From: Ignavibacteriota bacterium
Lineage (GTDB): Bacteria > Bacteroidota > Ignavibacteria > UBA10030
Assembly (NCBI GenBank): GCA_963727825.1
Contig: CAVSHO010000001.1
Span: 404,879-468,878 of the forward strand
Direction of reading: 5' to 3'
Length of the DNA stretch: 64,000 nt
Positions 43,668 to 62,267 of the stretch are shown in pieces (position 1 is the first letter of the stretch; the number at the start of each line of letters is the position of its first letter). A model generated the notes under the pieces. That model was given only the letters and a program-made list of their open reading frames with translations. It had not been told where the DNA came from and ran no database searches. A program made the translations under genes and the position numbers.

Positions 43668-44291
43668 TTAGAATCCGATCAGTCTACTACAAAGTGCAAC
43701 GATTCCAAATAGTATAAGGACGGAACCGGCAATCTTGTTCATAAGAGATATACCATCGGTGTTAATCCTTTCCTTGAAAAAATGGACGAGTGTTGTGAGC
43801 AGTGTGAACCAACTCATCGTACCAAGAAATATTCCCGTAACAAGAAATAATCCAAAAATATGATTGTCTGTGATATCCCCAAGTCCTACGCTTGCAAAAA
43901 CAGCAGCGAAGGTAAATACTGTCATCGGATTGGTCAATGCCAACAGGAAGGTTGAGAAGAATGCACGAACATGTCTATTTGTTCCATTTGTTTCTTTATC
44001 TGTCGAAGGGCGGGAGTGTAACGTATGATATCCCAATATGATCAGAACGGAACCGCCTATAAGCCTGATCCATTGTTGTTGATTATAGATAAAATCGGAA
44101 ATAAGTGTAACACCGAATGCAGCGACAATACCATAAAGTATATCTGCCACAGCTGCACTTAGACCAACAATTAGTCCGCGTTTACCTCCATGTGCGAGTG
44201 TTCGCCGAATACAAAGTACCCCGAGAGGTCCAACCGGTGCTGCCAGCGAAAATCCTATCGCAATACCTTTCAGAATATAGATCAAACCCAT
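43668..44291 (-). CDS. LysE-family transporter
   Basis: GFSLAAPVGPLGVLCIRRTL, LTNP; multiple TM segments. Confidence 0.9.
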   Translation of the reverse strand: MGLIYILKGIAIGFSLAAPVGPLGVLCIRRTLAHGGKRGLIVGLSAAVADILYGIVAAFGVTLISDFIYNQQQWIRLIGGSVLIILGYHTLHSRPSTDKETNGTNRHVRAFFSTFLLALTNPMTVFTFAAVFASVGLGDITDNHIFGLFLVTGIFLGTMSWFTLLTTLVHFFKERINTDGISLMNKIAGSVLILFGIVALCSRLIGF

Positions 44292-44536: not shown

Positions 44537-44598
44537 GTAGCGGCGGGCGGAACCTATCCGAACTCAGTCCAAAAATTTATGCTCCTTTCAGCGATTTT
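44537..44598. repeat. 62-bp dispersed repeat copy A (tRNA-3'-like att candidate)
   Basis: GTAGCGGCGGGCGGAACCTATCCGAACTCAGTCCAAAAATTTATGCTCCTTTCAGCGATTTT; 49/62 ungapped identity to copy C. Confidence 0.85.
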
Positions 44599-44712
44599 TA
44601 ATCAAAATAGTGAGTCGTTTGCGATAACATTGCCATTCAGTTTCTATTTTAGCACATTTATAATGTAAATTATTTTGTAACTACAAAAATTGCTATAAAA
44701 AAAAACACCACC

Positions 44713-46200
44713 ATGAGCACAGTCATCGTCATATTTGGCGCGACAGGCGACCTAACAGCTCGGAAACTCATTCCGGCTTTATACAACAATTTCCGCAAGA
44801 GACGTCTCCCTAAGTACATCTCTATCATCGGCTTTGCTCGCAAACCTTACACTGACGATAGCTTCCGCGAAAAGATGAAGGAATCGATTGCCGCGTTTGT
44901 GCCCGACGATTATGATGAAAACAATTGGCGTGAGTTCGCCTCACATCTTTTCTATCAACAAGGAGATTTTAAAAGTGCTGAATCCTATAGCGCCTTGTCG
45001 GTAAAGATCGATACTCACGGCGCTTCGGAAAAAAATTGTCTTTACTACCTTGCCACGTCTCCGGAATATTATACAAATGTCGTTGCACTGTTGGCTGAAG
45101 TGAATTTACTGAAAGAAAAGAACGAAAATGGATACCGCCGGATCATAGTCGAAAAACCACTCGGGCATGATCGTCAATCAGCAATTATTCTCAATCGTGA
45201 ATTTCATCGTGTACTAAATGAAGACCAAATTTACCGTATTGATCATTATCTTGGAAAAGAAACAGTACAGAATCTCGTTGTGCTTCGATTCGGCAACGCG
45301 ATCTTTGAACCGCTCTGGAATAGAAACTACATCGACCATGTTCAAATCTCGGTTGCAGAAACTGTTGGAGTAGAACATAGGGCTGGCTATTATGACAACG
45401 CAGGTGTTTTACGCGATATCTTTCAGAACCACCTATTGCAGATCCTAACGGTTGTTGCAATGGAACCACCGGCTACAATTCAAGCAGACGCGTTGCGAAA
45501 CGAAAAGGTGAAAGTTCTCACTGCACTAAGGGAGATTTCAAAGGAACATTCTGCGCAAGCAACTGTGCGTGCGCAGTATGAAGGCTATACATCGGAACCT
45601 GGTGTTGGATTACATTCAACAACTGAGACATATGCCGCTCTAAAGTTATTTATCGATAACTGGAGATGGCAGGGTGTACCGTTTTATCTACGTTCCGGGA
45701 AAATGATGAAAGAAAAATCATCGGATATCACGATTCAGTTCCGCCGTCCACCGACACAGATCTTTGATGTGCAGACGGGCACAACAGAGTTGTTTACTAA
45801 CTGCCTAACCGTTCGTATCCAACCTGACGAAGGGATTCATTTACGATTCATTGCAAAGGTTCCAAATCAGGGTATGCAAACCAGACCGGTTGAAATGGAT
45901 TTTCACTTCAGGGATTCTTTCGGTGTAAATGCCATACCTGATGCGTACGAAAGACTCCTTCTTGAAGCCCTTAACGGAGATGCCTCGCTGTTTGCCCGTA
46001 GTGACGAAATCGAACTTGCTTGGAATTTTATCGATGGCGTTCGTTCCGGGTGGGAAAGCGAGTTTGCACCGCCGTTGCTTAGCTATAAACCAAATACTTG
46101 GGGCCCCGACGCTGCAAACAAACTGCTTGGTTCTGATGGACGATGGTGGATTCACGACAATAAAATTCCTCATGGAAGTGATCCGATAACAGTGATGTAA
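44713..46200 (+). CDS. zwf: Glucose-6-phosphate 1-dehydrogenase
   Basis: FGATGDL, EKPLG, YRIDHYLGKE, RWQGVPFYLRSGK, DAYERL. Confidence 0.97.
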   Translation: MSTVIVIFGATGDLTARKLIPALYNNFRKRRLPKYISIIGFARKPYTDDSFREKMKESIAAFVPDDYDENNWREFASHLFYQQGDFKSAESYSALSVKIDTHGASEKNCLYYLATSPEYYTNVVALLAEVNLLKEKNENGYRRIIVEKPLGHDRQSAIILNREFHRVLNEDQIYRIDHYLGKETVQNLVVLRFGNAIFEPLWNRNYIDHVQISVAETVGVEHRAGYYDNAGVLRDIFQNHLLQILTVVAMEPPATIQADALRNEKVKVLTALREISKEHSAQATVRAQYEGYTSEPGVGLHSTTETYAALKLFIDNWRWQGVPFYLRSGKMMKEKSSDITIQFRRPPTQIFDVQTGTTELFTNCLTVRIQPDEGIHLRFIAKVPNQGMQTRPVEMDFHFRDSFGVNAIPDAYERLLLEALNGDASLFARSDEIELAWNFIDGVRSGWESEFAPPLLSYKPNTWGPDAANKLLGSDGRWWIHDNKIPHGSDPITVM

Positions 46201-46202
46201 GA

Positions 46203-46931
46203 ATGAAGCTTTATCCAAATATCGAAGTGCATCGATCGATTAAGAATCTCGAACAGAACGCTGCAAAGAGAATTGTCTTAATAATCATTAAAGCAATAAA
46301 AGAACGAGGAGATTGCTTCATTGCTTTATCGGGTGGCAACACTCCCCGGCCCGTATATCGCTTGTTGGGAACGCCGCCTATGAAAGACCAAGTTGATTGG
46401 AGGCATGTTCATTTGTTCTTTGCGGATGAACGTATTGTACCACCAACTGATACTCAGAGTAATTATGGCATGGTCAACCGGGAATTAATTTCACATATTG
46501 ACATACCTCGCAAGAATATTCATAGAATTAAAGTTGAGAAAAAACCTAAACTTGCGGCGGCGGCGTATGAAGAGGAATTGCGAAATATTTTTAAGGATGT
46601 TGTTCGGTTTGACTTGGTTTTGCTTGGCATCGGAAATGATGGTCACACCGCATCTATATTTCCAGGATCAGCTGCAGTGGAGGAAGAAAGAGCATTAGCT
46701 TTTGCAGTTTTCGTCCAACGCTTGAACAGTTGGCGTGTGACATTGACATTCCGGAGCATCAATAATTCGCGAGAAGTATTATTTCTCGTATCAGGCAAGA
46801 AGAAAGCGCCCATTGTTCAACGTGTTCTTAACTCACCGAATCCAAGAAAAGAATTACCGGCAACAATGGTCCAACCGGTAGACGGAAATCTTCTTTGGAT
46901 GATTGACGGAGATGCAGCCGAGGGAAAATAG
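46203..46931 (+). CDS. pgl: 6-phosphogluconolactonase
   Basis: ALSGGNTP, DERIVP...SNY, LGIGNDGHTASIFP, RVTLT. Confidence 0.95.
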   Translation: MKLYPNIEVHRSIKNLEQNAAKRIVLIIIKAIKERGDCFIALSGGNTPRPVYRLLGTPPMKDQVDWRHVHLFFADERIVPPTDTQSNYGMVNRELISHIDIPRKNIHRIKVEKKPKLAAAAYEEELRNIFKDVVRFDLVLLGIGNDGHTASIFPGSAAVEEERALAFAVFVQRLNSWRVTLTFRSINNSREVLFLVSGKKKAPIVQRVLNSPNPRKELPATMVQPVDGNLLWMIDGDAAEGK

Positions 46932-47116
46932 CGCTATGTGTGCTACCTCGTTTCTCTCGGTTAGAACTTCGATAATCCAATTATAGCAGAAAAAGCCGGC
47001 ATAATATTACCGACCTATTCAATTATTTATTTTTTAATTAAAAAATCTTCAATCCTTTGTAACGGAGGAGGGATTCCCCGACACACAACGTCGTAGCTGG
47101 GTCAAAAAATAAAAGA

Positions 47117-47140
47117 GGCCGAATCTTTTCAGATTCGGCC
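47117..47140 (-). terminator. Perfect hairpin with minus-strand U-tract but no minus-strand gene upstream
   Basis: GGCCGAATCT-TTTC-AGATTCGGCC, preceded by AAAAAATAAAAGA on the plus strand. Confidence 0.6.
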
Positions 47141-47285
47141 AAAAGTGTAGTGAGGACCTGATACTTGGTCAAAAGAAATTCTTACCTACTATACATTTAA
47201 GCGGATTTTGATATCAAATTTGATCCCGTCATGTTGTCCGCGACGGAAGAAATTGCACTACTGTTTGGAGAAATCATAAAAATAT

Positions 47286-47334
47286 TTGACTTTCAACCAT
47301 AAATAGAATATATTAATAATAGTAACGATTACTA
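47286..47334 (+). promoter_or_regulatory. sigma70-like promoter with a Fur/PerR-type palindromic box
   Basis: TTGACT (47286)-17 bp-TATATT (47309); palindrome TAGTAA-CGA-TTACTA at 47320-47334, just before the RBS. Confidence 0.7.
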
Positions 47335-47345
47335 ACAAGGGGAAT

Positions 47346-49939
<2,594 letters not shown>

Positions 49940-49993
49940 CGAAGAAGTCACTCTTGTTGAAACCGGTAAACATAATGTCTATGTGAAACAACA

Positions 49994-50020
49994 AACGCCC
50001 AAGCTCACCACTTGGGCGTT
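49994..50020 (+). terminator. Hairpin downstream of katG
   Basis: AACGCCCAAG-CTCACCA-CTTGGGCGTT, a perfect 10-bp stem; weak U-tract. Confidence 0.55.
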
Positions 50021-50111
50021 GCTATAAATGACAATTCCCAATCAAATAACTGCGATTCGTTTAATTATTTTTAAACAACTATTGACATTAATTCATTTTT
50101 ATATTAATTTG

Positions 50112-50126
50112 GTTAATATAATTAAC
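50112..50126. promoter_or_regulatory. Operator candidate 1 for the wHTH regulator
   Basis: GTTAAT-ATA-ATTAAC downstream of TTGACA (50082); second copy at 51074. Confidence 0.65.
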
Positions 50127-50169
50127 TTGTTTATAATAGTATCAATATTTATTTTTAAAACATAATGCA

Positions 50170-50775
50170 ATGGACAATACAATGGACAAAATAACTTTAA
50201 CACCCGAAGAAAGTCTCTTGTTAATTACAAAGACAATTGAAGAGACGAAACAAAGATTTAAAGAAAATGGCCACATTTTTATTTTGTGGGGAGTTATTAC
50301 GTTCACAGTATTTTCAAGTCAGTATATTCTTGTACTACTGGGATGGTATAAGTTATTTGACATAATATGGACTACTATATTATTTCCTATTGGGGCAATC
50401 TATACATTTATATATGTTAGAAAAAATGTAAAAAAGAATAATCTACCTAGTACTATCATCGGTAGGATAATAGGAACAATGGGATGGACGATGTGTTTGA
50501 ATATTATGATATTAAGTTATCTTTTTAGGCAGCAACTTGGTGATGCCATTGGCCCGATATTTTTAGTTATACTTGCCTTATTTATAATTGTTATCGGAGC
50601 ATCCATTAAATTTAAGCCGATATTAATTGGAGGTATCTTACTGAATTTAATCGGACTCGGTTCTTTCTATATTAGCAGGGATTATCATGGGCTGAGCATG
50701 ATGTTAGGAGCTTTGGTAGGATTGATAATTCCCGGGATATTACTCAATAGGGCAGATAGGAAAGAACATGTTTAA
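50170..50775 (+). CDS. Multi-TM membrane protein paired with a wHTH regulator
   Basis: EESLLLITKTIEETK N-terminus, FILWG, about 6 TM segments; overlaps the downstream regulator. Confidence 0.75.
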   Translation: MDNTMDKITLTPEESLLLITKTIEETKQRFKENGHIFILWGVITFTVFSSQYILVLLGWYKLFDIIWTTILFPIGAIYTFIYVRKNVKKNNLPSTIIGRIIGTMGWTMCLNIMILSYLFRQQLGDAIGPIFLVILALFIIVIGASIKFKPILIGGILLNLIGLGSFYISRDYHGLSMMLGALVGLIIPGILLNRADRKEHV

Positions 50776-51055
50776 CGATTTAGATCCCATATTACACTCG
50801 CAGCTTCGTTTATCAATCGTTTCTATTTTAATGACCGTTGATGAAGCCAATTTTACTTTTATACAAGAAACTACAAAAGCTGCAGCAGGTAATATAAGTA
50901 TCCAGATAAAAAAATTACAGGAGGCAGAATATGTTAAAGTTAAAAAAACCTTTAAAAATAATTATCCAAATACTACCATATCAATTACCAGTAAAGGAAT
51001 AAAAGCATTTGAGGATTATGTACATAATCTTAAAAAATATATAAATCCCAAATAA
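50768..51055 (+). CDS. Winged-HTH (MarR/ArsR-like) transcriptional regulator
   Basis: LDPILHSQLRLSIVSIL...GNISIQIKKL...T.KG.KAF. Confidence 0.88.
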   Translation: MFNDLDPILHSQLRLSIVSILMTVDEANFTFIQETTKAAAGNISIQIKKLQEAEYVKVKKTFKNNYPNTTISITSKGIKAFEDYVHNLKKYINPK

Positions 51056-51073
51056 TATTTTTTTGTCAATTAG

Positions 51074-51088
51074 GTTAATAATATTAAC
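51074..51088. promoter_or_regulatory. Operator candidate 2 for the wHTH regulator
   Basis: GTTAAT-AAT-ATTAAC between the regulator and the next gene. Confidence 0.65.
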
Positions 51089-51106
51089 TACTTAAAAGGA
51101 TTAATT

Positions 51107-52795
51107 ATGAAAACCACAATATTTATTTTAATGATTTCCATCCTGATGGAATTTGGTTTTGCTCAAAATAACCCGCAAAAGTTTGATGGGCAGATTATGA
51201 AAAACACATTTAACAAAGACAGCATTTCGGTATTAGACTTCTATCGCCGGTATAGTTCATTTACTGATCCTGGAGAGTATGTATATTTGTATAAGAATCT
51301 TCCTGATTCATTGCCTGAACTTTGTAGTTTAGTAAAATCCCAGTTTATTCATCCCATCGTAGAATTACCGCAATATCGTGATCAAATTCCTAAAGAAAGA
51401 TGGAATGAGACAGAAAAGTATACAACAGTTAAATCGGTTCTGCAGGGACTTCTATCCTATGACTCCAGGGGTTTTGTGAAAGACCGGAAACCTGAAGATC
51501 GATTAGTTTTAGGTTGCCGGGAAAATTCCCTCTTACTGGCATCTATACTTAAATACCGTGGTATTCCGGCCAGGATCCGTTACGGACACGCCGCGTATTT
51601 AATACCCGGATTTCATGCGAATCACGTAATCTGTGAAGTATGGAACGAAAAAGACAAGCGTTGGATGCTTGTGGATCCAAGCACAAATATGATTGATTTC
51701 AGCAGAGAAAAATTTGCTTTTGGCAATGATTCATGGTTGAAAATGAAAAAGGGGGAAATAGATCCAAATCTGTATGGGATACCAGGCAAATTTAGCAATA
51801 ATAACGGATTGGTTATAATAGCAACTATGGTTTGCCTGGACTTAGCCTCTGTATTAGGGAACGAAAATACAATATATCAATATGCACCAATTGTTGATTA
51901 TGCTTTCGATAACAATAAAAAATTACCAGAAGATCAAATAGAAATTCTAAACAGGATCAGCAAATTAATGAAATCGTTCAGCTCTGAAAATCTTTCGAAA
52001 TTACAAGAGATTTATGACAATACACCTCAAATTCAAATTACAAAAACATTTGTATTCGATGTCTCTTCATTGCTATCCAATAATTTTGATACAAAAACAT
52101 CAGAAAACGATCCGAAAGTTAAACATACTTCAAAAAATAACCCGGATATTGAATTTGTCGATATACCGGAAGGAACATTCATGATGGGAAGCCCTGTAAC
52201 AGAAATGGGTAGAAAAGATGACGAGGTACAACACAAAGTAACTTTGAGCGCATTTAAGATGAGTAAATATTGCATAACCTATGATCAGTACGATAAGTTT
52301 TGTGAAGCTACCGGCAGAAATAAACCGTGGGGATTTAAACGCGGTAATATGCCTGTATCACAAATAACATGGTACGATGCCGATGCATTTGCCAGATGGA
52401 CGGGCTGCAGGTTGCCTACAGAAGCTGAGCGGGAATATGCTACCCGAGCAAATACTACAACTCCTTTTTATACCGGTGATAGCCTTACATTAGATCAGGC
52501 ATATTTTAATAACAGTTCAGGAAGGGAAGCCAAGCCCGTTGGAAGTTTTCCGCCTAATGCCTTTGGTTTATATGATATGCATGGCAATATGGTGGAATGG
52601 TGCAGTGATTGGTATGGTGAGTATAACATTAATGAAAAAATGAATCCAAAAGGACCAGAAACAGGCAAAATCAAAGTTTTTCGCGGTGGAGGTTTTTGGC
52701 TTCCTGCATGGAGATGCCGGTCTGCATGCCGAGGAGGAGATCCTCAAGGTAATAGAGGCGCAGGTCTTAGTTTTAGAATTGTAAAAGATAAATAA
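51107..52795 (+). CDS. Secreted transglutaminase-like + FGE-sulfatase (SUMF1) domain fusion
   Basis: Signal peptide; GCRENSLLLASIL..GIPARIRYG, H.ICEVW, W..VD triad; C-terminal RLPTEAEREYA, PNAFGLYDMHGNMVEW. Confidence 0.85.
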   Translation: MKTTIFILMISILMEFGFAQNNPQKFDGQIMKNTFNKDSISVLDFYRRYSSFTDPGEYVYLYKNLPDSLPELCSLVKSQFIHPIVELPQYRDQIPKERWNETEKYTTVKSVLQGLLSYDSRGFVKDRKPEDRLVLGCRENSLLLASILKYRGIPARIRYGHAAYLIPGFHANHVICEVWNEKDKRWMLVDPSTNMIDFSREKFAFGNDSWLKMKKGEIDPNLYGIPGKFSNNNGLVIIATMVCLDLASVLGNENTIYQYAPIVDYAFDNNKKLPEDQIEILNRISKLMKSFSSENLSKLQEIYDNTPQIQITKTFVFDVSSLLSNNFDTKTSENDPKVKHTSKNNPDIEFVDIPEGTFMMGSPVTEMGRKDDEVQHKVTLSAFKMSKYCITYDQYDKFCEATGRNKPWGFKRGNMPVSQITWYDADAFARWTGCRLPTEAEREYATRANTTTPFYTGDSLTLDQAYFNNSSGREAKPVGSFPPNAFGLYDMHGNMVEWCSDWYGEYNINEKMNPKGPETGKIKVFRGGGFWLPAWRCRSACRGGDPQGNRGAGLSFRIVKDK

Positions 52796-52810
52796 TAAAA
52801 AAGAGACCAC

Positions 52811-53737
52811 ATGATTAATGTATCAAACCTAAGAAAAACATTCGATACAATTGAGGCGTTGAAAGATATTTCATTCAACATTCAGCAAGGTGAATGTTAT
52901 GGGATACTGGGGCCGAATGGTGCAGGTAAAACAACGACCATCTCCATCTTGAGTACAATAGTAGAACCAAATGACGGAGAAGTGAGAATTGCCGGATATG
53001 ATTTGAAAAAGAATCCGTTGGAATGTAAGAAAAACATTGGCGTTGTTACACAGGAAATAGCACTTTATAATGAACTCTCGGCATATGATAACTTACTATT
53101 TTGGGGAGGCTTGTATAATGTTCCGAAACCGGAACTAACAAAACGAATTGATGAAACTATAAACCTGCTCGGACTGGCCGAGAGGAAGAATGATAAGGTA
53201 AAAACCTATTCCGGTGGAATGAAACGCAGAATTAATATCGCTTCTGCATTGCTTCACAGGCCTCATGTCTTATTTATGGATGAACCCACCGTGGGTATTG
53301 ACCCTCAAAGCCGGAATTTGATTTTTGAAGTGGTAGAAAAGCTGCATAAAGATGGAATGACAATTGTTTATACCACTCATTATATGGAAGAAGCTGAACG
53401 TTTGTGCGATCGTATCGGAATTATTGACAACGGAGAAATCATTGCACAGGGAACATTGGATGAATTAAGGACTTCGGGTTCGATGAAAGAAACCGTTGTA
53501 ATTTCTTTTACTAATCTTTCGGATGAGCGCTTCAATATAATTGCAAATTTTTGGAATGATCTGCAACGTTTTGAAGATACGATACATTTTTATTCCATGA
53601 ATATTCAGCATGATTTATCGAAAATAATATTAAAGTGCAGTGAATTCGATCTTGATATCAAGCATATTGATATCCGAAAAATAAACCTTGAAACCATATT
53701 CTTAAGTTTAACCGGTAAACAACTGAGAGACAAATGA
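52811..53737 (+). CDS. ABC exporter ATP-binding protein
   Basis: GPNGAGKTT, YSGGMKRR, FMDEPTVGID, TTHYMEE. Confidence 0.95.
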   Translation: MINVSNLRKTFDTIEALKDISFNIQQGECYGILGPNGAGKTTTISILSTIVEPNDGEVRIAGYDLKKNPLECKKNIGVVTQEIALYNELSAYDNLLFWGGLYNVPKPELTKRIDETINLLGLAERKNDKVKTYSGGMKRRINIASALLHRPHVLFMDEPTVGIDPQSRNLIFEVVEKLHKDGMTIVYTTHYMEEAERLCDRIGIIDNGEIIAQGTLDELRTSGSMKETVVISFTNLSDERFNIIANFWNDLQRFEDTIHFYSMNIQHDLSKIILKCSEFDLDIKHIDIRKINLETIFLSLTGKQLRDK

Positions 53738-54489
53738 TAAAACTAGTTAAGAAAGATTTGAAATTATTTTTCAGTAATAGGCAAGACATGATGCTTACTT
53801 TTATAATGCCCATAATATTTATTACCCTATTTGCTTTTGTTTTCGGAAAAATGAACAATTCCGAAGAAAATCATTTAGCGAGTCTTGTTCACTCGGTGGC
53901 AGGTACATCAGTAATGATGCTATTATTTTCAGTAGCTGGAATAGGTGGAGGTCTTTTGGATGAAAAGCAGGAAGGCATGTTAAAGAAGTTACTTTGCTCA
54001 CCCATACACCGTAATTATATCCTCTTTGGGAAATTAGTATTTGCGAATATCATTTCCATTATTCAGCTAATAATCGTGTTTGTTTACGCCTGGCTGATTT
54101 TTGGTTTAGACATTATACATCATCTCCCTTCTCTTGTCCTTATGATTTTTACAATAGCCTTTGCCTGTTCCGGTTTTGGTGTAGTTCTTGCCTCGTTTGC
54201 TAGAACACGCCAACAGGTGCAGGGATTTTCAACTATAATTGTACTTGTTATGAGTGCTATCGGAGGTAGTATGATTCCTATATTTGCAATGCCGGAAATT
54301 ATGCAAAAGATTGCTGTTTTTTCCGTTAATTATTGGGGGATTCAGGGGATTTATGATATCTTCTGGAAACTTGTTCCGTTTACAGATATTACATTCTTAT
54401 CAAGAGTCTTAGTTTTATTAGGCGTTGGAACTTTATTGAATTTCATTGCTCTTCAGATGTACAGGAGAAATATTTTAAAGATTGTTTAA
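53734..54489 (+). CDS. ABC-2 type exporter permease
   Basis: Six TM segments; EKQEGMLKKLLCSP, ILFGK, GGSMIP. Confidence 0.9.
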   Translation: MIKLVKKDLKLFFSNRQDMMLTFIMPIIFITLFAFVFGKMNNSEENHLASLVHSVAGTSVMMLLFSVAGIGGGLLDEKQEGMLKKLLCSPIHRNYILFGKLVFANIISIIQLIIVFVYAWLIFGLDIIHHLPSLVLMIFTIAFACSGFGVVLASFARTRQQVQGFSTIIVLVMSAIGGSMIPIFAMPEIMQKIAVFSVNYWGIQGIYDIFWKLVPFTDITFLSRVLVLLGVGTLLNFIALQMYRRNILKIV

Positions 54490-54798
54490 ATGGACAAATG
54501 TGAACATACCCACCAAAGGACAAAAAACACTCTACTCTATACTTGGAGATTATTTTGCTTGGTTGTGTATTCTTTTCTTTGTAATTATAAGTGGAACTAT
54601 TCTTAAACGCAATCCAATCAGTCACACAAGTTAGAGGATTCTATGGGTTGATTCATTATTCTCCACAACTCGTATTCTAGTCTTGTTAAGTTAATGATAA
54701 TTCAACGAAATTTAAAAAAAGAAGATATATTGGAAATGGATGTTTTCCCAGAAGAGGTTTTGTAGGCATCCTGAAAATACAAAAAAATAGGAGCAAAT

Positions 54799-55401
54799 AT
54801 GGATAGAAAGGATTTTTTAAAAAGGTCATGCGGATTGGGCATCTGTTCATGCATAGGAATGAGTTTGATGACGACAGAAGAATTGTCGGCAGCGGTAATG
54901 CAAAGTCCTTTCGATGATAAAAAAACTCCGCTCGTGCCGGTAGATGCCAGACAAATACAAAATATGTTGAGCTATATCGATTCCTCGATGGATGAGTCCG
55001 TAAAGAAAAGTGTATTTGAAAAACTTGGCGCTGAGCATTTGACCCACCCGGGATTTAAAAAATTTATCCACGATGCAAAGAAAAATCTGCAAGTGTATTT
55101 TGACAACATTAATTCAAACAAAGATACGTATTGGGAAAAGATCGAATACCTTCCGGCAACTTCGACGATTAAAATCACGGGGAAGCCAGTGGACCGTTGC
55201 GCGTGTCCCTATGCTCAATCAGAAAATCCGCCGTTATCACTTTGTAACCATTGCTGCGTAGGATTTCAGAAAACCATGTTCGGAATGCTTCTCGAGAAAC
55301 CGGTGATTAAAGTACAGATCGATGAAAGTTTTCTCTTGGGCGGGAAGAGATGTAGTTCAACGGTATTTATTGATGGAAAATTGGGTTTGAAAAAAAGCTA
55401 A
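54799..55401 (+). CDS. Cys-rich hypothetical protein with a Tat-like signal
   Basis: MDRKDFLK; CACP, LCNHCCVG and GGKRC motifs; GGAG RBS. Confidence 0.7.
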   Translation: MDRKDFLKRSCGLGICSCIGMSLMTTEELSAAVMQSPFDDKKTPLVPVDARQIQNMLSYIDSSMDESVKKSVFEKLGAEHLTHPGFKKFIHDAKKNLQVYFDNINSNKDTYWEKIEYLPATSTIKITGKPVDRCACPYAQSENPPLSLCNHCCVGFQKTMFGMLLEKPVIKVQIDESFLLGGKRCSSTVFIDGKLGLKKS

Positions 55402-55465
55402 TGATTTATTGAATGGAAAGAGAATTCTCAACCGACCTCGGTCAATTTAATTATAGGCCCGATGT

Positions 55466-55615
55466 ATGAAAAAGATTATCCTTGCCTCAATTCTATCCTT
55501 TATCTTATTATTGGTGAGGTTTTCCGGCACAGAAGCTCAATCTTCAAAAATCGATTTTACAGGATCAAGGTATCCGTCACACATCAGAGTGTTATATTTG
55601 GCCAGCCCCGAATGA
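55466..55615 (+). pseudogene. Possible truncated secreted-protein remnant
   Basis: 49-codon ORF MKKIILASILSFILLLVRFSGTEAQ... looks like a signal peptide followed by an early stop. Confidence 0.3.
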
Positions 55616-55785
55616 TATGCCAATGATAAGTTAGTATTTTTTTATTATGGTACTTGCCCCCATCGTAGGTCCAAATTCAATGTAAGTATTTCTGCGATCA
55701 AACATTTTTGACCTAGCAAGCAATATAGATATTCAATATTGATGGACGTACTTCCATCGCATTCAATGCTCCGAGTCGTGGGTTC

Positions 55786-55847
55786 GTAGCGGGGGGGGGG
55801 ACTGTTGCGAACTAATACGCGAATTTGAAGCTCCTTTCATCGATTTT
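55786..55847. repeat. 62-bp dispersed repeat copy B
   Basis: GTAGC-G10-ACTGTTGCGAACTAATACGCGAATTTGAAGCTCCTTTCATCGATTTT; 46/62 ungapped identity to copy C. Confidence 0.8.
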
Positions 55848-55908
55848 ATGTAAATTTCAACGAAAGTAATTTTTAATTTGACTTTTTTTGAAACCTTTAA
55901 TATTATTA

Positions 55909-55929
55909 GACCGTAATACGAATATAGTC
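55909..55929. promoter_or_regulatory. TetR operator candidate 1
   Basis: GACCGTAATACGAATATAGTC, similar to GACCATAATACCGTATTGGTC at 56535; TTGACT upstream. Confidence 0.55.
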
Positions 55930-55941
55930 GAAAGGACTAAA

Positions 55942-56514
55942 ATGAACAAAGATGATATTGTCAGAGCCGAAATTTTAAAAGCTGCTGAACAAGTTTTTCA
56001 AAAATGGGGAAGCAATAAAACCACTATGGAAGATATTGCCCGCGAAGCAGGTAAAGGAAAGAGTACGCTTTATTACTATTATCAAAGTAAAGAAGAAATA
56101 TTTGATGCTGTAGTAATTGTTGAATTTGAAAATATCCTTCAAAAGGCAAAAGAATTAGCACAAGAGACTAAGACAGCAAAAGAAAGGTTGATCAAGTATA
56201 TGGTTGAATCAATCAATGAAATGAAAAGCAGGATTAGCGCGTATACAATTATCCGGGAAGAAATTAAACGAAACCAAAATTTTATCAGTAAACTTCGAGA
56301 TAGGTTTCAGGCAAGAGAGGAAAAATATATTCAGGAAATATTAGAACTTGGTTTGAAAAACAAAGAGTTCACATTTATTCATAAAAGTGAATTAACTACC
56401 GCAGCAAAGACAATAACAGGAATGATGCACGCACTTGAGCTTTATTTATTATTGGAAAATGATGATACTGCTCAGATAGATATTGCTGCCCGCTTTATCG
56501 CGAACGGACTTTAA
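55942..56514 (+). CDS. TetR/AcrR-family regulator
   Basis: TTMEDIAREAGKGKSTLYYYYQSKEEIF; ATG 55942 after AAAGGA. Confidence 0.95.
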   Translation: MNKDDIVRAEILKAAEQVFQKWGSNKTTMEDIAREAGKGKSTLYYYYQSKEEIFDAVVIVEFENILQKAKELAQETKTAKERLIKYMVESINEMKSRISAYTIIREEIKRNQNFISKLRDRFQAREEKYIQEILELGLKNKEFTFIHKSELTTAAKTITGMMHALELYLLLENDDTAQIDIAARFIANGL

Positions 56515-56534
56515 GTTTTTTTTGTCAATAATTC

Positions 56535-56555
56535 GACCATAATACCGTATTGGTC
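56535..56555. promoter_or_regulatory. TetR operator candidate 2
   Basis: GACCA-N11-TGGTC inverted repeat before the efflux genes. Confidence 0.6.
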
Positions 56556-56577
56556 TAATAATCCAAAGGATACAATT

Positions 56578-57615
56578 ATGAAAAATAAAAAGAATCAACT
56601 TGTCATTTTCTTTATTGGAATCGCACTTTCTGTGTGTGGCTGTTCCGGTAATTCTGGCGATCAAAATAATACTTCTGTTAAAGTTCAGGTTGAAAAAGTA
56701 AAACCCGCCGATGTAAGTCAGGAGCTTTCATACAGCGGCACCATAGAAGAATCCGAAACCATTCCGCTTAGTTTTTCTTCGGTAGGAACTGTGTCGAAAG
56801 TATTTGTTTCCGAAGGTGCAATTGTAAGGAAGGGACAAATCCTTGCGGAATTAGACAATGCAACGTATCAAAATACCTATGCTATGATGCATGCGTCCGA
56901 GGAGCAGGCAGAAGATGCTTTTAAACGCTTAACGCCGATGCATAATAATGGTAATCTGCCGGATGTAAAATATGTAGAAGTGGAAACCGGTTTGCAAAAA
57001 GCAAAAGCGGGAGCATCCATTGCCAGGAAAAATTTGGATGACTGCAAGTTATATGCAACTACCGATGGATATATCGGCAAACGATCCATCGAACCCGGAA
57101 TGACTGCTATGCCGAACCTCACTTCGATAACGATTGTGAAAATAAACAAAGTGTTAGCTCGCGTATCGGTTTCTGAGAACGAAATTGCCCTTATTCATAA
57201 AGGGCAAAAGGCAAACGTAACTATCGGTGCTTTGGGAACTGCAAGCTATGATGGCGTGGTGGAAGAAATCGGTGTCGTTGCTGACCCAATAGCACATTCA
57301 TATAAAATAAAAATTGGAATAGAGAACAAAGATTTGTCCATCAAGCCGGGGATGATCTGTTCTACAATCATTGAAAGCCCAAGCGCATTCCACGGTGTCG
57401 TTGTTCCGAGCAGAGCGGTTATGATCGATGAGTTGGGAAAGAATTTTGTATATGTCGTTTCATCACAAAATAAAGCACTGCGCAAATATATTCTCACCGG
57501 TCAGTTGCTGAACAGCGGTATTGAAGTACTGGATGGATTACAAATGAACGATACGATCGTTGTGGAAGGCCAACATAAACTCATTGAAAACGCCTTTGTG
57601 CAAATTGTGAAATAA
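56578..57615 (+). CDS. RND efflux membrane fusion protein
   Basis: Lipoprotein-like signal; VSEGAIVRKGQILAELD, KPGM, GLQMND..VVEG. Confidence 0.93.
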   Translation: MKNKKNQLVIFFIGIALSVCGCSGNSGDQNNTSVKVQVEKVKPADVSQELSYSGTIEESETIPLSFSSVGTVSKVFVSEGAIVRKGQILAELDNATYQNTYAMMHASEEQAEDAFKRLTPMHNNGNLPDVKYVEVETGLQKAKAGASIARKNLDDCKLYATTDGYIGKRSIEPGMTAMPNLTSITIVKINKVLARVSVSENEIALIHKGQKANVTIGALGTASYDGVVEEIGVVADPIAHSYKIKIGIENKDLSIKPGMICSTIIESPSAFHGVVVPSRAVMIDELGKNFVYVVSSQNKALRKYILTGQLLNSGIEVLDGLQMNDTIVVEGQHKLIENAFVQIVK

Positions 57616-57632
57616 TAGCAAACGGAAAGTAC

Positions 57633-60600
57633 ATGAATATGGAAAAGAAACATACATTGCTAGAAAGGCTTTTGCAGTACAAACAGGTGCTGTATATCTT
57701 TACCGTTATTTGTATTCTAGTAGGAGTGGTAGCCCTCTTCCAGATGCCGCGCGATGAATATCCGACATTTACAGTACCAACAGGTCTCATCGTTGGTGTG
57801 TTCCCCGGCGCCTCTTCTCATCAGGTAGAAGAACAATTGACAGCTAAAGTAGAGAATTATCTGTTCCAGTATAAGTCGGTTGATCGCTCCAAGACGTATT
57901 CCGTTTCAAAAGAGAACGTCATGCTCATCTATGTTCAGGTCTCAGATGCTGAAAAGGATAAAGATGGATTTTGGGCGAAATTGCGCCATGGCTTGAATGA
58001 TTTGAAAGTAGAACTGCCTGCCGGAGTCACTTCTTTAACGGCGGATAATGATTTTGGTAGTACGTCTGCAATGCTGCTTGCTGTTCAGTCTGAGACAAAG
58101 ACATATAAAGAACTTGAAAATTATATTAAGTCTTTTGAAGACGATGTGCGTAAAGTACCGTCGGTCTCTAAAGTAAAACATTACGGCCTGCATAAAGAAC
58201 AAATCAGTATTTACATGGATGATGCCAAGCTCGCTAATTATGGCATAAAACCTATTCAGGTCCTTATTGCTCTTAAGCCGCAAAGCACCGTAAATTATAT
58301 GGGGGAGATAGATGATGGTAAATATGTGCGTCCGATCCATATTACCTCAAACCTTAAAACCGAACAGGATGTAGCAAGCCAAATTATTTATTCCGATCCG
58401 CAAGGCAATGTTGTACGCGTCAAGGATATTGCAAAAGTAGTGCGTGAATATGAGGATATGGATTCCTATATCCGTGTCAACGGAAAAAAATGCTTGCTTG
58501 TTTCGCTTGAAATGAAATCAGGGGAGAATATTGTCCAATTTGGTGATGCAGTACAAAAAGCCATTGATAAGTTCTCTGTCATGCTTCCACCTGATATAAA
58601 GATCATCACTATTTCCAATATCCCCAATGTCGTGTCGAAAGCTATTGCAAATTTTCTCAAAGAATTTGCCATTGCAATGTTAGCTGTAATATTGGTTACT
58701 GTCCTTCTGCTTCCATTAAGAGTTGCCCGTATTGCGGCAATGTCAATTCCAACTTCTATACTGACAGCTATCGGGATCATGTGGATAAATGGAATAGAGC
58801 TGCAAACCGTTTCACTAGCAGGTTTAATTATTGTCCTTGGTATCACTGTGGATGATGCTATCGTTATAGTCGATAATTATATAGAGAAGTTGGATCAGGG
58901 CATGACTCCGTTCGATGCTGGAACAAAAAGTGTAACCCAGCTCTTTAGTTCCGTGCTTTCCGCTACGCTTATTATCATAGCATGTTTTATGCCGATGCCG
59001 ATATTTATGACCGGTCAAGGTGGAGATTTTATCCAGTCACTTCCGACTACCATTATGTATGCATTGCTCATATCATTGCTGCTTTCAGTCTCTATCATAC
59101 CCTTGTTAAGTTACACATTTATTAAAACAGGCATAAAAGGCAGTTCATCAAAAAAAGGGAAAGTGACATTTCTCGATAGACTTCAGAATTTTTATAACAA
59201 ACTTCTTGAGAATGCCTTCAAAAGAAAAAAACTGGTCGTTCTTGCAGGTGGTCTTTCGTTCATTATAGGACTTGTGTTGATTGCGGTTACTCCGCAGCAG
59301 TCATTCCCAAAACTTGAAAGGAACCAATTTGCAGTGGAAGTATTTCTGCCCATCGGAAGTTCTCTGCAAAAAACAGATTCTGTTATCACAGATCTTGAGG
59401 GAATACTTCAAAAAGACCCGCGCGTTCAAGTCGTGACGTCATTTATTGGAACAAGCTCACCACGTTTTAATGCTCTCTATGCACCCAATTTTCCTGCAAA
59501 GAATTATGGTCAATTGGTTGTGGTCACGGAATCGAACAAGGCTACGGTTGAAATTCTCGACGAGTACAGCAAGAAATTGGAAGGCAAATATCCCCTTGCC
59601 AATATAAAATGGAAGCAATTGGCTTTCGAAATATTCAAGGCTCCAATCGAGATCCGTATTTCGGGAGATAGTATTCAGACCAACAAACAGACGGCAAATC
59701 GTGTCTCTGATATTTTACGCCAATTCAAGGATCTCGAATTCATACGTACCGATTATGAACAACCTTTGCAATCTGCCGATCTGGTCGTAAGGAGAGATGA
59801 AGCAGCGCGGCTTGGTTATTCGAATTCGCTTCTGGCGTATTCGCTGATGGTAGGAACAAAAGGATTCCCGATCTCAACCGTATGGGAAGGAGATTATCCC
59901 GTTGAGGTGAAATTAAAAATCAATAAAAAGATCAAATCCAGTCCTAGTGATATCATGAATCAATATGTGACCTCTCCATTTACGTTCTCCTCTGTTCCGG
60001 TTCGTCAGTTGGCAACAATAAAGCCAGGTTGGACAGAAGGAGAAATTGTACGGCGTAACGGAGTACGAACCATAACTGTTTTTGCAGAAATAAAAAGAGG
60101 ATTACTTCCTGCAACGATATTTAGTAAAATCAAACCTCTTGTCGATAAAATGGACTTGCCTCCCGGCGTTTCGGTCGAATACGGCGGCGATTATCAAATG
60201 AGCATTGAGAATATTACGCCGATGTACTATTCACTTATAGTAAGTATCACCCTGATATTTCTTATCCTTATGTTTCAATTCAAGAATATTAAAACAACGC
60301 TTTTGATCATGGTGACGCTCCCGCTAAGTGTCTTCGGCGCCGCGTTTGGCGTGTTTGTAACAGGATATCCATTCGGGACAACGGCGTTTATTGGACTGAT
60401 CGGCTTAATGGGTATCGTTGTACGAAATGGAGTAATATTTGTTTCGTATGCAGAAGAACTTCGTCACGAGCATGGACATTCATTAGAAGAAGCGGCGATC
60501 TCGGCGGGTAAGAGAAGAATGCGTCCGATATTCCTTACTTCAGCCGCTGCTGCCGTAGGCGTTATTCCGATGATTGTGAGCGGTTCTTCGCTGTGGGGAC

Positions 60601-60728
60601 CGCTTGGTACTGTAATATGTTTCGGGCTGCTTTTTGCACTTGTGCTCTCATTGCTGGTGCTGCCCGTGCTGTACTATTTGTTCCACAGAAAAGATTTTAA
60701 AATAGTTGAAGAAAGTGAGACACTATGA
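57633..60728 (+). CDS. RND (AcrB/AcrD/AcrF family) efflux permease
   Basis: 1031 aa; FPGAS, GITVDDAIV, GIVVRNG, RMRPIFLTS. Confidence 0.95.
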   Translation: MNMEKKHTLLERLLQYKQVLYIFTVICILVGVVALFQMPRDEYPTFTVPTGLIVGVFPGASSHQVEEQLTAKVENYLFQYKSVDRSKTYSVSKENVMLIYVQVSDAEKDKDGFWAKLRHGLNDLKVELPAGVTSLTADNDFGSTSAMLLAVQSETKTYKELENYIKSFEDDVRKVPSVSKVKHYGLHKEQISIYMDDAKLANYGIKPIQVLIALKPQSTVNYMGEIDDGKYVRPIHITSNLKTEQDVASQIIYSDPQGNVVRVKDIAKVVREYEDMDSYIRVNGKKCLLVSLEMKSGENIVQFGDAVQKAIDKFSVMLPPDIKIITISNIPNVVSKAIANFLKEFAIAMLAVILVTVLLLPLRVARIAAMSIPTSILTAIGIMWINGIELQTVSLAGLIIVLGITVDDAIVIVDNYIEKLDQGMTPFDAGTKSVTQLFSSVLSATLIIIACFMPMPIFMTGQGGDFIQSLPTTIMYALLISLLLSVSIIPLLSYTFIKTGIKGSSSKKGKVTFLDRLQNFYNKLLENAFKRKKLVVLAGGLSFIIGLVLIAVTPQQSFPKLERNQFAVEVFLPIGSSLQKTDSVITDLEGILQKDPRVQVVTSFIGTSSPRFNALYAPNFPAKNYGQLVVVTESNKATVEILDEYSKKLEGKYPLANIKWKQLAFEIFKAPIEIRISGDSIQTNKQTANRVSDILRQFKDLEFIRTDYEQPLQSADLVVRRDEAARLGYSNSLLAYSLMVGTKGFPISTVWEGDYPVEVKLKINKKIKSSPSDIMNQYVTSPFTFSSVPVRQLATIKPGWTEGEIVRRNGVRTITVFAEIKRGLLPATIFSKIKPLVDKMDLPPGVSVEYGGDYQMSIENITPMYYSLIVSITLIFLILMFQFKNIKTTLLIMVTLPLSVFGAAFGVFVTGYPFGTTAFIGLIGLMGIVVRNGVIFVSYAEELRHEHGHSLEEAAISAGKRRMRPIFLTSAAAAVGVIPMIVSGSSLWGPLGTVICFGLLFALVLSLLVLPVLYYLFHRKDFKIVEESETL

Positions 60729-62069
60729 AAAAGTATATTATAATCTGCCTGATCTGGATATGTGCGTTTCCTGTTTTTGCTCAACGAGCGTTGACATTGG
60801 ACGAAAGCAAACAGCTTGCACTGCAGAACAACGCCAAGATAAAAAATGGCGCGCTGGAAATAGAGTCAATGCGGCAAACGAAAAAGGCAGCGTTCACAAA
60901 TTTTTTTCCATCAATCAGTGCCAGCGGAGCTATGTTTGAAGCGCAGAAGAACTTGATGGAAATATCCACGCAAGGCGGTAATCTTCCTGTCTTTGATGGA
61001 AAAGACCTTGCTGCTCTTTCTACAACCGCACAGTTTGCGTATATGCCGGCTTCAACTATGGGATTGCTGAAATCGGGAACGTTCGGTATGGTTACCGCTG
61101 TGCAGCCGATCTTTGCTGGTGGCAGAATCTGGAATGGCAATAAACTTGCGTCACTGGGCGAAAATATCAGCGAGTACAAGAACCAGCTTTCCCGAAACGA
61201 AGTGATTCTGAAGACAGAAGAACAGTATTGGTTGGTGGTATCATTGAATGAAAAATTTAAAACCATACAACGATATGAAGAACTATTAAACGATTTATTA
61301 GCGCAAGTAGAAGATGCTTATAAATCCGGTTTGGCTATGAAAAATGATCTGCTCAAGGTAAAAGTGAAGCGTAGCGAAGTTCTTCTCAATAAATCAAAAT
61401 TGGAAAACAGCCGAAAGCTCGCAACAATAGCGTTTTGCCAGTATATCGGCATCCCCTTCGATTCGGCATTGGTGTTAAAGGACTCGTTAGTGGTAAATGA
61501 ACTTCCTCAAACATATTTCATCGATCATTCTGCGGCACTTAACAATAGATCGGAATATCATTTGTTGCAAGCATCTGTACAAGCAGAGGAATTACAGACC
61601 AATATGAAACTTGGCGAGTATTTACCACAAGCCGGTATCGGCGTGAGCGGCCTGTATATGAAGTTGGACGAAGGAAAAGATCGAACTATTGGAATGGTCT
61701 TTGGTACTGTTTCCATTCCGATTTCTGACTGGTGGGAGTGCATCGCACACTCTGCAGGAGCGGAGCATTAAAGAACAAATCGCACATAACTCTATGAAAG
61801 ACAATTCAGAATTATTATTGCTCCAGATGCAGAAAGCATGGCAGGATTTTTCAGATGCATATAAACAAGTCTTGTTAAGCGAAGAAGCTAAGGTGCAGGC
61901 TGAAGAAAACCTGAAAGTGAATCAAGATAGCTACAACAATGGCATGAGCAATCTTTCTGATCTGTTGGAAGCGCAAGCGCTGCAGCAGCAGATGAATGAT
62001 CAGTTGATAGATGCCAGGGCAGGATATCGAAGTAAGCAGATTATGTACTTGCAGGTAACAGGAAGATAG
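60725..62069 (+). CDS. TolC-family outer membrane factor, split by a +1 frameshift (probably an artefact)
   Basis: OEP motifs (ALQNN, VQPIFAGG, YLPQ) continue in 61689-62069 (AEENLK...DLLEAQ). Deleting one G of GGG at 61734-61736 gives DWWSASHTLQER. Confidence 0.88.
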
Positions 62070-62144
62070 CCGTCTATTTTCATATTCTATATTTTATTTT
62101 TTGCACAAGTTTAAGTCGTAGGTTTGTATCGGGGTGAAGAAATT

Positions 62145-62179
62145 AAAAAGGCGAATTCAAAATGGATTCGCCTGTTTTT
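62145..62179. terminator. Bidirectional terminator-like hairpin abutting repeat copy C
   Basis: AAAAAGGCGAATTCA-AAA-TGGATTCGCCTGTTTTT. Confidence 0.75.
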
Positions 62180-62241
62180 GTAGCGGGGGAGGGAACTCAT
62201 CCGAACTCAGCCTAATTGTTGAAGCTCCTATCAGCGATTTT
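62180..62241. repeat. 62-bp dispersed repeat copy C
   Basis: GTAGCGGGGGAGGGAACTCATCCGAACTCAGCCTAATTGTTGAAGCTCCTATCAGCGATTTT; the first 15 nt are the reverse complement of TCCCTCCCCCGCTAC, a tRNA-fMet-like 3' end. Confidence 0.85.
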
Positions 62242-62267
62242 CTCTAAAAAACGGGGGGTCGCTGAAC

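Follow-up and report, generated by a model that had tools for sequence, protein, structure and literature searches.

Sixty-two-nucleotide repeats in an Ignavibacteriota genome as probable attachment junctions of islands stacked at a tRNA-Met gene

The genome assembly GCA_963727825.1 of an Ignavibacteriota bacterium contains, in a stretch of 64,000 nucleotides (nt) of contig CAVSHO010000001.1 (positions 404,879 to 468,878; contig C1 below) that is here called the window, three copies of a 62-nt repeat, designated A, B and C. These repeats are probably the attachment (att) junctions of genomic islands that accumulated one behind another at the 3' end of a tRNA-Met gene of the elongator type, where they would have been inserted by a large serine recombinase (LSR) resembling CcrB; the probability of this explanation is estimated at roughly 0.77. 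The repeat consists of two parts. Its first 15 nt, the core, correspond to the 3' end of the tRNA gene, and the other 47 nt, the arm, appear from their reading frame to be the displaced 3' coding end of an LSR gene that spans attP, the attachment site of its own element. Presumably, members of this LSR family made the junctions of copies A, B and C, and the loss of the LSR followed insertion.

The repeats and the tRNA gene at which they are stacked

The initial annotation of this DNA, which was made from the sequence without database searches, reported three ungapped copies on the plus strand, and they were found as described at positions 44537-44598 (A), 55786-55847 (B) and 62180-62241 (C). 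Aligned without gaps, A and C are identical at 49 of the 62 positions, B and C at 46/62, and A and B at 45/62, with 41 columns being identical in all three. A repeat search of the window grouped the copies as one three-copy family. Apart from these, nothing on the two strands of the window agrees with copy C, aligned without gaps, at more than 31/62 positions. Two conserved sub-motifs have three matches each, against 0.23 and 0.05 expected, and three matches were reached in none of 100 shuffles. In the whole genome (14 contigs, 3.12 Mb), nhmmer found nothing beyond A, B and C better than E=0.44 with a three-copy model, and nothing at E≤1 with a model built from 21 copies. According to lists of open reading frames (ORFs) and Pfam matches, the copies are intergenic, as annotated, and precede plus-strand genes, i.e., zwf-pgl, genes for a TetR regulator, a membrane-fusion protein (MFP), an RND pump and an outer-membrane factor (OEP), and genes for an endonuclease and a Fic-domain protein, respectively. 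Also the hairpin with a T-run that directly precedes copy C (62150-62179) had been noted before.

The resemblance of the core to a tRNA 3' end had been recognized as well, and nt 1-15 of the repeat do match the reverse complement of the 3' ends of the genome's own tRNA-CAT genes. In copy C, they are identical to the tRNA-Met 3' end of two relatives, G015 and G009. Copy B has 14 nt in common with the genome's own tRNA gene on contig C8 and contains one extra G, and copy A differs from the tRNA-Met 3' end at 3 of the 15 positions. In the window, ARAGORN found no tRNA genes, and no Rfam matches were obtained at gathering thresholds. The idea that the whole 62-mer is a pseudo-tRNA was rejected on inspection, as it shows no T-arm pairing. 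The genome has three tRNA-CAT genes, two of which, on contigs C9 and C8, carry the 3' motif named in the initial annotation. Judging from features of the anticodon stem and the first base, the C9 gene would be of the initiator type and the C8 gene of the elongator type. The latter, the sole gene of its type in the genome, is encoded by the minus strand at a distance of 10.8 kb from where contig C8 begins.

The relatives compared are uncultured Ignavibacteriota, designated by G numbers. When up to 3 mismatches are tolerated, an IUPAC pattern of 62 nt has matches in 10 of 40 relatives, nine of which are among the 15 genomes of the same genus; a reversed-pattern control gave no matches. With a looser pattern, 22 copies were found in 12 of 86 genomes of the family, representing 2 of 33 genera, and copies on the same contig are always co-oriented (22 copies, 12 genomes). 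When the copies are aligned with their flanks, similarity starts sharply at the first base of the core and covers the whole 62-mer plus a few bases, up to a stop codon.

The comparison with G015 locates the target. In this genome, a junction copy is followed by the TetR-MFP-RND-OEP genes, a hairpin and an intact tRNA-Met gene on the minus strand. Over 6413 bp, this stretch shares 94.7% identity with the genome studied here, in which it extends from copy B to nt 15 of copy C. The 15 nt themselves are identical, after which the sequences diverge, G015 continuing with the T-loop and the body of the tRNA and copy C with the arm. Since the alignment runs from copy B to nt 15 of copy C, copy C occupies exactly the place of the tRNA gene in G015. 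The identity of the junction is, therefore, directly observed, and so is its presence/absence polymorphism: the efflux module of G015 ends at the tRNA gene, and at the same place the genome studied here has copy C plus a further island. Hairpins of the class found at 62150-62179, called T1, adjoin the real tRNA-Met 3' end in both G015 and G001. The initial annotation had predicted repeated integration at a minus-strand initiator tRNA-Met gene to the right of the window. The location is borne out by the intact tRNA gene at the predicted place in the relatives, but the gene appears to be of the elongator type instead. The window ends where contig C1 ends, 1.8 kb past copy C. Presumably, the end of C1 continues into the start of C8 as one island, because the endonuclease-Fic island of G002 ends in a remnant of the same LSR, and C8:2708-10866 matches the LSR end of an element in G011 (85% identity).

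The array in the window is composed of the following features:

43668..44291, minus strand: gene for a LysE-family transporter (Pfam PF01810), left neighbour of the array
44537..44598, plus strand: copy A, diverged tRNA-Met 3' end and putative displaced LSR tail; frame from 44536, TAA at codon 22 (44599-44601)
44713..46931, plus strand: cargo genes zwf (44713-46200; Pfam G6PD_N/G6PD_C) and pgl (46203-46931; Glucosamine_iso)
47059..47170, plus strand: cluster of decayed junction relics after pgl, read by eye in the sequence
47346..49939, plus strand: cargo genes for a Fur-family regulator (47346-47762; Pfam FUR) and a catalase-peroxidase (47759-49939; peroxidase)
50170..55401, plus strand: cargo genes for an unknown 201-aa protein, an HTH_34 regulator, an FGE-sulfatase/transglutaminase protein, an ABC ATPase, an ABC-2 permease and an unknown 200-aa protein (Pfam)
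55775..55785, plus strand: left flank of copy B, inverted copy of the 5' strand of the tRNA-Met T-arm (class T3)
55786..55847, plus strand: copy B, tRNA 3' end with an extra G and putative LSR tail of type 3; frame from 55785, stop 55851-55853
55943..62069, plus strand: cargo genes for a TetR regulator, a membrane-fusion protein, an RND pump and an outer-membrane factor, the last as two overlapping ORFs (Pfam)
62150..62179, no strand: bidirectional terminator-like hairpin of class T1 with spacer, abutting copy C
62180..62241, plus strand: copy C, tRNA-Met 3' end and putative LSR tail of type 1; frame from 62179, stop 62245-62247
62268..64000, plus strand: start of the innermost island, encoding a DNA/RNA non-specific endonuclease at 62268-62924 and, in two ORFs from 63006 up to the contig end, a Fic-domain protein (Pfam)

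Similar arrays were found in all four relatives in which the region is contiguous (G015, G009, G002 and G001). All their copies are co-oriented and located on the 3' side of the tRNA gene, with 1 to 4 copies per array and array lengths of 6-78 kb; in G009, G002 and G001, 2 to 4 junction copies over 10-78 kb are closed by the same tRNA-Met gene. The order of the modules differs among the genomes (G001, G002, G005, G009 and G019), and the boundaries coincide with the copies, in agreement with the initial annotation. In G009 and G019, the block up to the ABC-2 permease gene (FGE-ABC) is directly followed by a junction copy, and in G002, the genes for the unknown 201-aa protein and the HTH_34 regulator form a mini-island of 2.8 kb beside the tRNA gene. 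In G005 and G001, too, there is a junction copy at either side of the efflux block. In G002, the endonuclease-Fic genes (94% identity) are again located behind a junction copy, and their island ends near the tRNA-Met gene in a remnant of the same LSR (92% identity). Between species, the island modules are 91-95% identical, as against mostly 68-76%, with a few segments of 85-87%, for neighbouring DNA. Of the observations that the initial annotation had named as speaking against integration at a tRNA gene, none was made: a matching tRNA gene is present, the copies are not scattered over the genome, and the boundaries are tied to the repeat.

The position of every copy upstream of plus-strand operons would also suit a cis-regulatory element, i.e., the promoter or operator of a regulon, or a structured RNA leader of stress-related operons (zwf, efflux, nuclease), and this gene set may be likened to oxidative-stress regulons. 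However, RNAalifold gave only -1.9 and -3.6 kcal/mol for 17 copies on the two strands, with 0 and 1 compensatory pairs, no Rfam match was obtained, and the distance to the start codon ranges from 27 to 115 nt. In addition, the copies in the relatives lie beside unrelated genes, always next to tRNA-Met arrays, and the first 15 nt equal a tRNA end. A regulatory role as the explanation of the repeat is, therefore, highly improbable. Readings as a promoter or a sigma-factor site, which had been based on the sequence alone, were dropped, as the relatives place the copies beside tRNA-Met.

The recombinase gene and its displaced 3' end

The initial annotation noted that no module in view encodes a recombinase. 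This applies to those modules but presumably not to the array as a whole, as a cognate LSR gene abuts the C8 tRNA-Met gene of the same assembly. It is the single Resolvase-domain gene of the genome (one match to PF00239), and the domains that it encodes are Resolvase, Recombinase and Zn_ribbon_recom, a set that characterizes LSRs, proteins of ~500-600 aa. The 3' end of the tRNA-Met gene is 10 nt away from the end of the LSR gene, which consists of two overlapping ORFs, 9097-9690 and 9633-10781, split at an A-run. In G011, the LSR gene is an intact ORF of 586 codons, whose product is 92% identical. The N-terminal sequence YIRCSTEMQ resembles the catalytic-serine motif. The protein shows weak matches to the structures of the SPbeta and TP901-1 integrases. 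Its best NCBIfam match is to CcrB, with 93.4 bits against a cut-off of 900, followed by XisF with 81 bits, which makes it, on the basis of these scores, a likely distant relative of CcrB and no equivalog. Homologues of the LSR are present in 15 of the 40 relatives. In 12 of these loci that were examined, a tRNA-Met gene adjoins the LSR gene in six, a tRNA-Leu gene in one and tRNA-Glu/His genes in one, and no tRNA gene was found in four. The LSRs of several clades abut tRNA-Met, and this adjacency is read directly from the assemblies.

The LSR ORF of G011 passes through the core and continues, to 56 nt past core position 1, into the tRNA gene in antisense orientation. All 21 distinct junction copies are open in this frame, as against 0-9 of 19 copies in the five remaining frames. 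The stop codon is the 23rd codon in 20 copies and the 22nd in copy A, and it follows a conserved peptide, C-S-G-G-G-N-x-x-E-L-S-x-V-V-E-A-P-F-S-D-F-x. Synonymous variants occur in this tail, with CCT, CCA or CCG for Pro, four Leu codons, different Ser codons, and TTT or TTC for Phe, and single-base codon differences amount to 544 synonymous and 775 non-synonymous ones. As the G011 frame continues open through all copies, the arm most likely represents the displaced 3' end of the LSR gene, with attP located within this gene. The initial annotation, which had offered a displaced recombinase C-terminus as an alternative to attachment junctions, translated another frame (GTA GCG ...), which is open for 20 codons in 6 of 19 copies and is wrong; the idea itself holds and is no alternative to the junctions. 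Its suggestion that the common arm points to one recombinase family is upheld. All eight homologues returned from databases (33-100% identity) end in a tail encoded by the tRNA gene, and the overlap with the tRNA gene is, therefore, a trait of the family. An ORF that enters the tRNA gene, in another frame, is also seen for two distant LSRs (30-32% identity) that adjoin tRNA-Met.

Most islands that target tRNA genes use tyrosine integrases according to the Islander paper (PMC4383910), and the genome encodes eight Phage_integrase genes. The arm could then be an arm-type binding region of islands that have lost their integrase genes. However, none of the eight genes is located in the array of the window or near the tRNA gene on C8, and no PF00589 match was found within the arrays of G001, G002, G009, G011 and G015. 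Moreover, the arm is in frame with, and continues, the LSR ORF, and it is LSRs that abut tRNA-Met in several clades. That tyrosine integrases made the junctions is very unlikely indeed.

If attP is located inside the 3' end of the LSR gene, the copies would be the left-hand B-P' junctions of islands that were inserted successively into the 3' end of the minus-strand tRNA-Met gene. Nt 1-15 would comprise the acceptor strand, the T-stem strand and the last base of the T-loop, and the arm would be the P' arm of the element, i.e., the last ~17 codons of the LSR gene and its stop codon. In the circular form, the LSR ORF would cross attP and end at the conserved TAA. In the integrated form, it would run into the antisense strand of the tRNA gene, leaving its true tail stranded at the far end of the island. 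Each new integration would move the older islands outwards, and these, i.e., zwf-pgl, the PerR-type regulator with KatG, the ABC block and the RND efflux genes, would have lost the recombinase end and kept the terminator that once served the tRNA gene.

The virtual attP site and the mobility of the cassettes

The P side of the G011 element contains a hairpin whose 3' arm is an inverted repeat of the conserved middle of the arm. When this P side is joined in silico to P' arms of type 1 or 2, 14-16 of 25 pairs are dyad-symmetric, always about core position 9.5. This symmetry held for four of the five arms tried; in 200 shuffles, the best value was ~11 on average and 14-16 at most. Such a geometry would be LSR-like and suggests that crossover takes place at core positions 9-10. 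The attP sites of LSRs measure ~50 bp and are imperfectly dyad-symmetric, with a crossover dinucleotide at the centre. A further argument for the crossover position, based on mismatches in the T-stem, was dropped, as both tRNA variants are mismatched at pair 50-64.

In the left flank of several junctions, an inverted copy of the 5' strand of the tRNA-Met T-arm abuts the core. It was found at 55775-55785, in decayed form at 62113-62135, at G009:C15:4721, G001:C38:5880 and G004:C101:7187, and at one junction of the G002 array. When this T3 flank is joined to the body of the tRNA, a 12-bp dyad arises with 16 of 25 pairs, again about core position 9.5. The flank may, thus, represent a B-type half-site that is carried by island ends.

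Several observations weigh against the explanation preferred here. In the genome itself, the LSR gene uses a different frame, which ends 9 nt short of the core; the P arm with the inverted repeat is missing, and the A-run splits the gene, so that the enzyme may be dead in this genome. The codon-position signal in the tails is modest (14, 12 and 18 variable columns at the three positions), and the counts for the 21 copies are not independent, these copies being related by descent. A junction-encoded tail is present in none of the eight homologues returned from databases. The type-3 tail of copy B shows no symmetry when joined to the P arm of G011 (10/25). The 3' end of an LSR gene forms the left flank in only 1 of 33 non-tRNA junctions, in G002; the left flanks of the other 32 are terminator hairpins of a few recurring classes, the inverted tRNA T-arm strand, or other sequence. 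From this frequency, it follows that either loss of the LSR was near-universal or some cassettes never had one. Furthermore, neither an excised circle nor an empty site was seen. The assembly, a metagenome-assembled genome rated as 6.55% contaminated, does not link the end of C1 to the start of C8; C1 overlaps no other contig, and the missing part of the Fic gene is on none of them.

In the search for excised forms, scans for attP with two short natural motifs and a variable gap gave no matches in viral contigs and two in metagenome contigs, both of them without a core and, hence, due to chance. In public sequencing runs, the fraction of words sampled from the stretch that is present does not exceed 0.17, and their contigs cover the stretch in fragments, with two informative joints. 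One contig, from run X3, jumps from position 47131 of the window to 62196 through a junction core, so that the end of pgl is joined to the endonuclease module, and another has a C-type tail in front of the TetR operon. Likewise, the cargo that accompanies the same right-end hairpin class (T1, T2) or the same tail type varies from genome to genome. Tails, right ends and cargo have, thus, been reshuffled, either by a recombinase or by homologous exchange.

This reshuffling would fit an active system, in which recombinase-less modules are individually excised and inserted by an LSR acting in trans, like integron cassettes or pseudo-SCC elements (SCC, staphylococcal cassette chromosome). It would accommodate the same T1 and T2 hairpins and tail types with different cargo, both metagenomic joints, the efflux module of G015 that is located alone between a junction and the tRNA gene without a recombinase, and the T3 flank, which would rebuild a symmetric attB. 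However, homologous recombination via the conserved linkers of ~110 nt would reshuffle the modules equally well, the inverted repeat of the P arm is found only at the right ends in G011 and G002, and neither a circle nor an empty site was observed. G002, G009 and G015, with genomes that are 99-100% complete and contain arrays, have no Recombinase-domain gene anywhere in the genome, which fits fixed remnants at least equally. An active cassette system is, therefore, improbable. The initial annotation's comparison to integrons, with mobilization in trans, is not supported: IntI and hairpin sites are lacking (see below), and the same three relatives have no LSR. Most cassettes look like fixed remnants: the zwf-pgl and efflux modules contain no recombinase, and since there is no tyrosine integrase in the arrays and no Recombinase-domain gene in G002, G009 and G015, most cassettes are orphans.

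An extension of the stacking of islands by an LSR is possible, albeit doubtful: the swap of the tail could be a built-in state switch, and the array a cassette chromosome that extends itself next to a tRNA gene. The full-length recombinase, with its conserved ...ELS..VEAPFSDF tail, would then be encoded in the circular state of the element only, and integration would exchange this tail for antisense-tRNA codons, thereby changing or silencing the enzyme. Upon excision, any stacked tail junction could restore the gene, so that one recombinase located at the tRNA end could remove nested sets of recombinase-less cassettes. Right ends that mimic the inverted tRNA T-arm would regenerate a symmetric attB and, thereby, invite the next insertion.

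Related systems and further observations

Cassette arrays at a single gene are well known from SCC elements (SCCmec, pseudo-SCC and composite islands), which the LSRs CcrAB or CcrC insert at the 3' end of rlmH/orfX, and which form arrays with direct repeats and recombinase-less members. The arrays described here share with them the use of the 3' end of one conserved gene, the direct-repeat boundaries, the recombinase-less cassettes, and CcrB as the best NCBIfam match of the recombinase. They differ in that a tRNA gene is the target, that there is one recombinase rather than a ccrA/ccrB pair, that its gene appears to span attP, and that the CcrB match is far below the cut-off.

In the ICESt1/ICESt3 paradigm for ICEs (integrative and conjugative elements), where a tyrosine recombinase is involved and the mechanism has been demonstrated, recombinase-less elements with att sites are located beside an element with a recombinase, and co-excision in cis is possible. 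Here, recombinase-less att-bearing elements likewise appear to be stacked beside a recombinase-bearing one. In the Myxococcus phage Mx8 (intP/intX) and in Sulfolobus SSV1, attP is located inside a tyrosine integrase gene, and integration changes or splits the ORF. In the present case, ~17 codons of a serine recombinase would be exchanged for antisense-tRNA codons instead. With integrons, the arrays share co-oriented, promoter-less-looking cassettes that are separated by a repeated recombination site. In contrast to integrons, the sites are derived from a tRNA end and, probably, a recombinase gene end, and no IntI or PF00589 match was found in the arrays, no attI, and no hairpin attC in the 17-copy alignment on both strands.

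The closest resemblance is to the ssrA genomic islands (ssrA-GIs) of Dehalococcoides. As described in the paper on these islands (PMC3146451), they are arranged in tandem downstream of a small-RNA gene, with co-oriented direct repeats of its 3' end, and a CcrB-like serine recombinase of ~540 aa, DsiB, is encoded beside the intact gene, with insertion in the T-loop/T-stem region. The ORF of DsiB overlaps the 3' end of the target on the complementary strand, and its stop differs between the integrated and the circular state; extra bases beside the repeat are conserved, and the islands that lack an integration module were regarded as possible cis-mobilizable elements (PMC3146451). McMurdie et al. 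(2011) considered, without evidence, that the element may encode a complete recombinase only when it is circular or when an adjacent element contributes the lacking fragment (PMC3146451). The same text cites the accretion concept of ICEs and cis-mobilizable elements (CIMEs). Shared with the ssrA-GIs, as far as they are described there, are the tandem co-oriented islands, the region of insertion, a serine recombinase (here with a distant resemblance to CcrB) encoded beside the intact gene, the conserved bases next to the repeat and the recombinase-less members; an LSR ORF that overlaps the 3' end of its target antisense and islands without a recombinase, as in the arrays of G009 and G015, are both present here. 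According to the same source, the target in Chloroflexota is tmRNA, whereas it is an apparently elongator-type tRNA-Met in Ignavibacteriota, and divergent C-termini were reported there, whereas the tail is conserved, in frame and closed by a fixed stop in 21 of 21 copies here. Furthermore, a second, small serine recombinase (CcrA/DsiA) was not found, the genome having a single Resolvase match, the six-gene integration module was not found among the C8 ORFs with Pfam, and the cargo consists of ordinary stress and efflux genes. Islands at tRNA genes (tDNAs), as treated in the Islander paper (PMC4383910), resemble the arrays in the intact tDNA with co-oriented displaced 3' fragments and in the restoration of the tRNA 3' end by the island; they differ in that the recombinase here is a serine recombinase, which most members lack. 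That text states that serine integrases are not known to use tRNA genes (PMC4383910). In the literature that was searched, no description was found of serine-recombinase arrays at tRNA-Met or in Ignavibacteriota.

The arrays are, thus, an unusual variant of the known growth of genomic islands, the novel points being the tRNA target, the phylum, the lack of a small second recombinase, and the conserved in-frame tail. Serine integrases are prized as tools for their short and simple sites. A clade in uncultured Ignavibacteriota appears to target a tRNA gene with a serine recombinase whose gene straddles its own attachment site, and the stranded in-frame tails provide a signature by which old insertion boundaries may be recognized even after loss of the recombinase. 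They are also the clearest sequence support so far for the Dehalococcoides idea of a recombinase that is complete only on the circle or beside a supplying neighbour. Furthermore, the arrays illustrate how genes of accessory metabolism and of efflux, such as zwf-pgl, the KatG gene and those of an RND pump, are transferred among species of the phylum at one hotspot. The zwf-pgl pair is present as a single copy in the genome, and zwf was found, with this query, in 5 of the 15 other genomes of the genus.

In the relic cluster after pgl, a tRNA-like fragment at 47059-47079 is followed by a T2-type hairpin (47117-47140) and a degenerate core at 47147. The same T2 hairpin, together with its spacer, is located in front of an intact junction of G005. 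The 21-copy nhmmer model detected no further decayed copies in the window, the relics at 47059-47170 being too decayed for it. Other families of junctions on the same tRNA-Met core were seen at G009:C15:25186 and 31866, beside the LSR remnant of G002, in G019, and on G014:C49. One of these families has a short arm that begins with TCCCGCTTGAGC. Another has a longer arm of 27 codons in the LSR frame, ending in E-M-P-L-D-E-I-P-L-N, and precedes the mini-island with the genes for the 201-aa protein and the HTH_34 regulator. Exact duplicates of the 5' part of the tRNA-Met gene are located 190-300 nt beyond its 5' end, at G010:C16:61664-61705, G014:C123:10207-10248 and G001:C38:16256-16285, pointing to elements of a second kind that would insert at the opposite side of the gene. 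Outside the window, at C1:3037-4237, a 10-nt tRNA-Met-like core is located beside a tyrosine integrase gene (C1:3425-3868) and a tRNA-Pro gene (4162-4237).

The genes for the outer-membrane factor (60725-62069), the Fic protein (63006-64000) and the recombinase (C8:9097-10781) are each split in two overlapping ORFs. Metagenome contigs have one base fewer than the assembly at 61734 and at 63665, and the splits may be homopolymer assembly errors rather than signs of pseudogenes. Between positions 62224 and 62265, the end of the copy C tail, TTCAGCGA, pairs with TCGCTGAA, located 21 nt downstream, just before the start codon of the endonuclease gene. This pairing is also found in the relatives of copy C in G002 and G011 and is absent in other cargo contexts. 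LysE-like genes with 65-70% amino-acid identity are located 1.7-3 kb away on the 5' side of the tRNA-Met gene in G001, G002, G009 and G015. In the window, the LysE gene is at the opposite end of the array as compared with these four relatives, which reflects either rearrangement or paralogy. Farther upstream, paralogous response-regulator segments are found at 11572 and 34151, and positions 7436-10546 contain seven copies of a coding repeat of ~51 nt (a D-I-T-E-R-K linker), spaced about 370-810 nt, in a multi-PAS sensor kinase.

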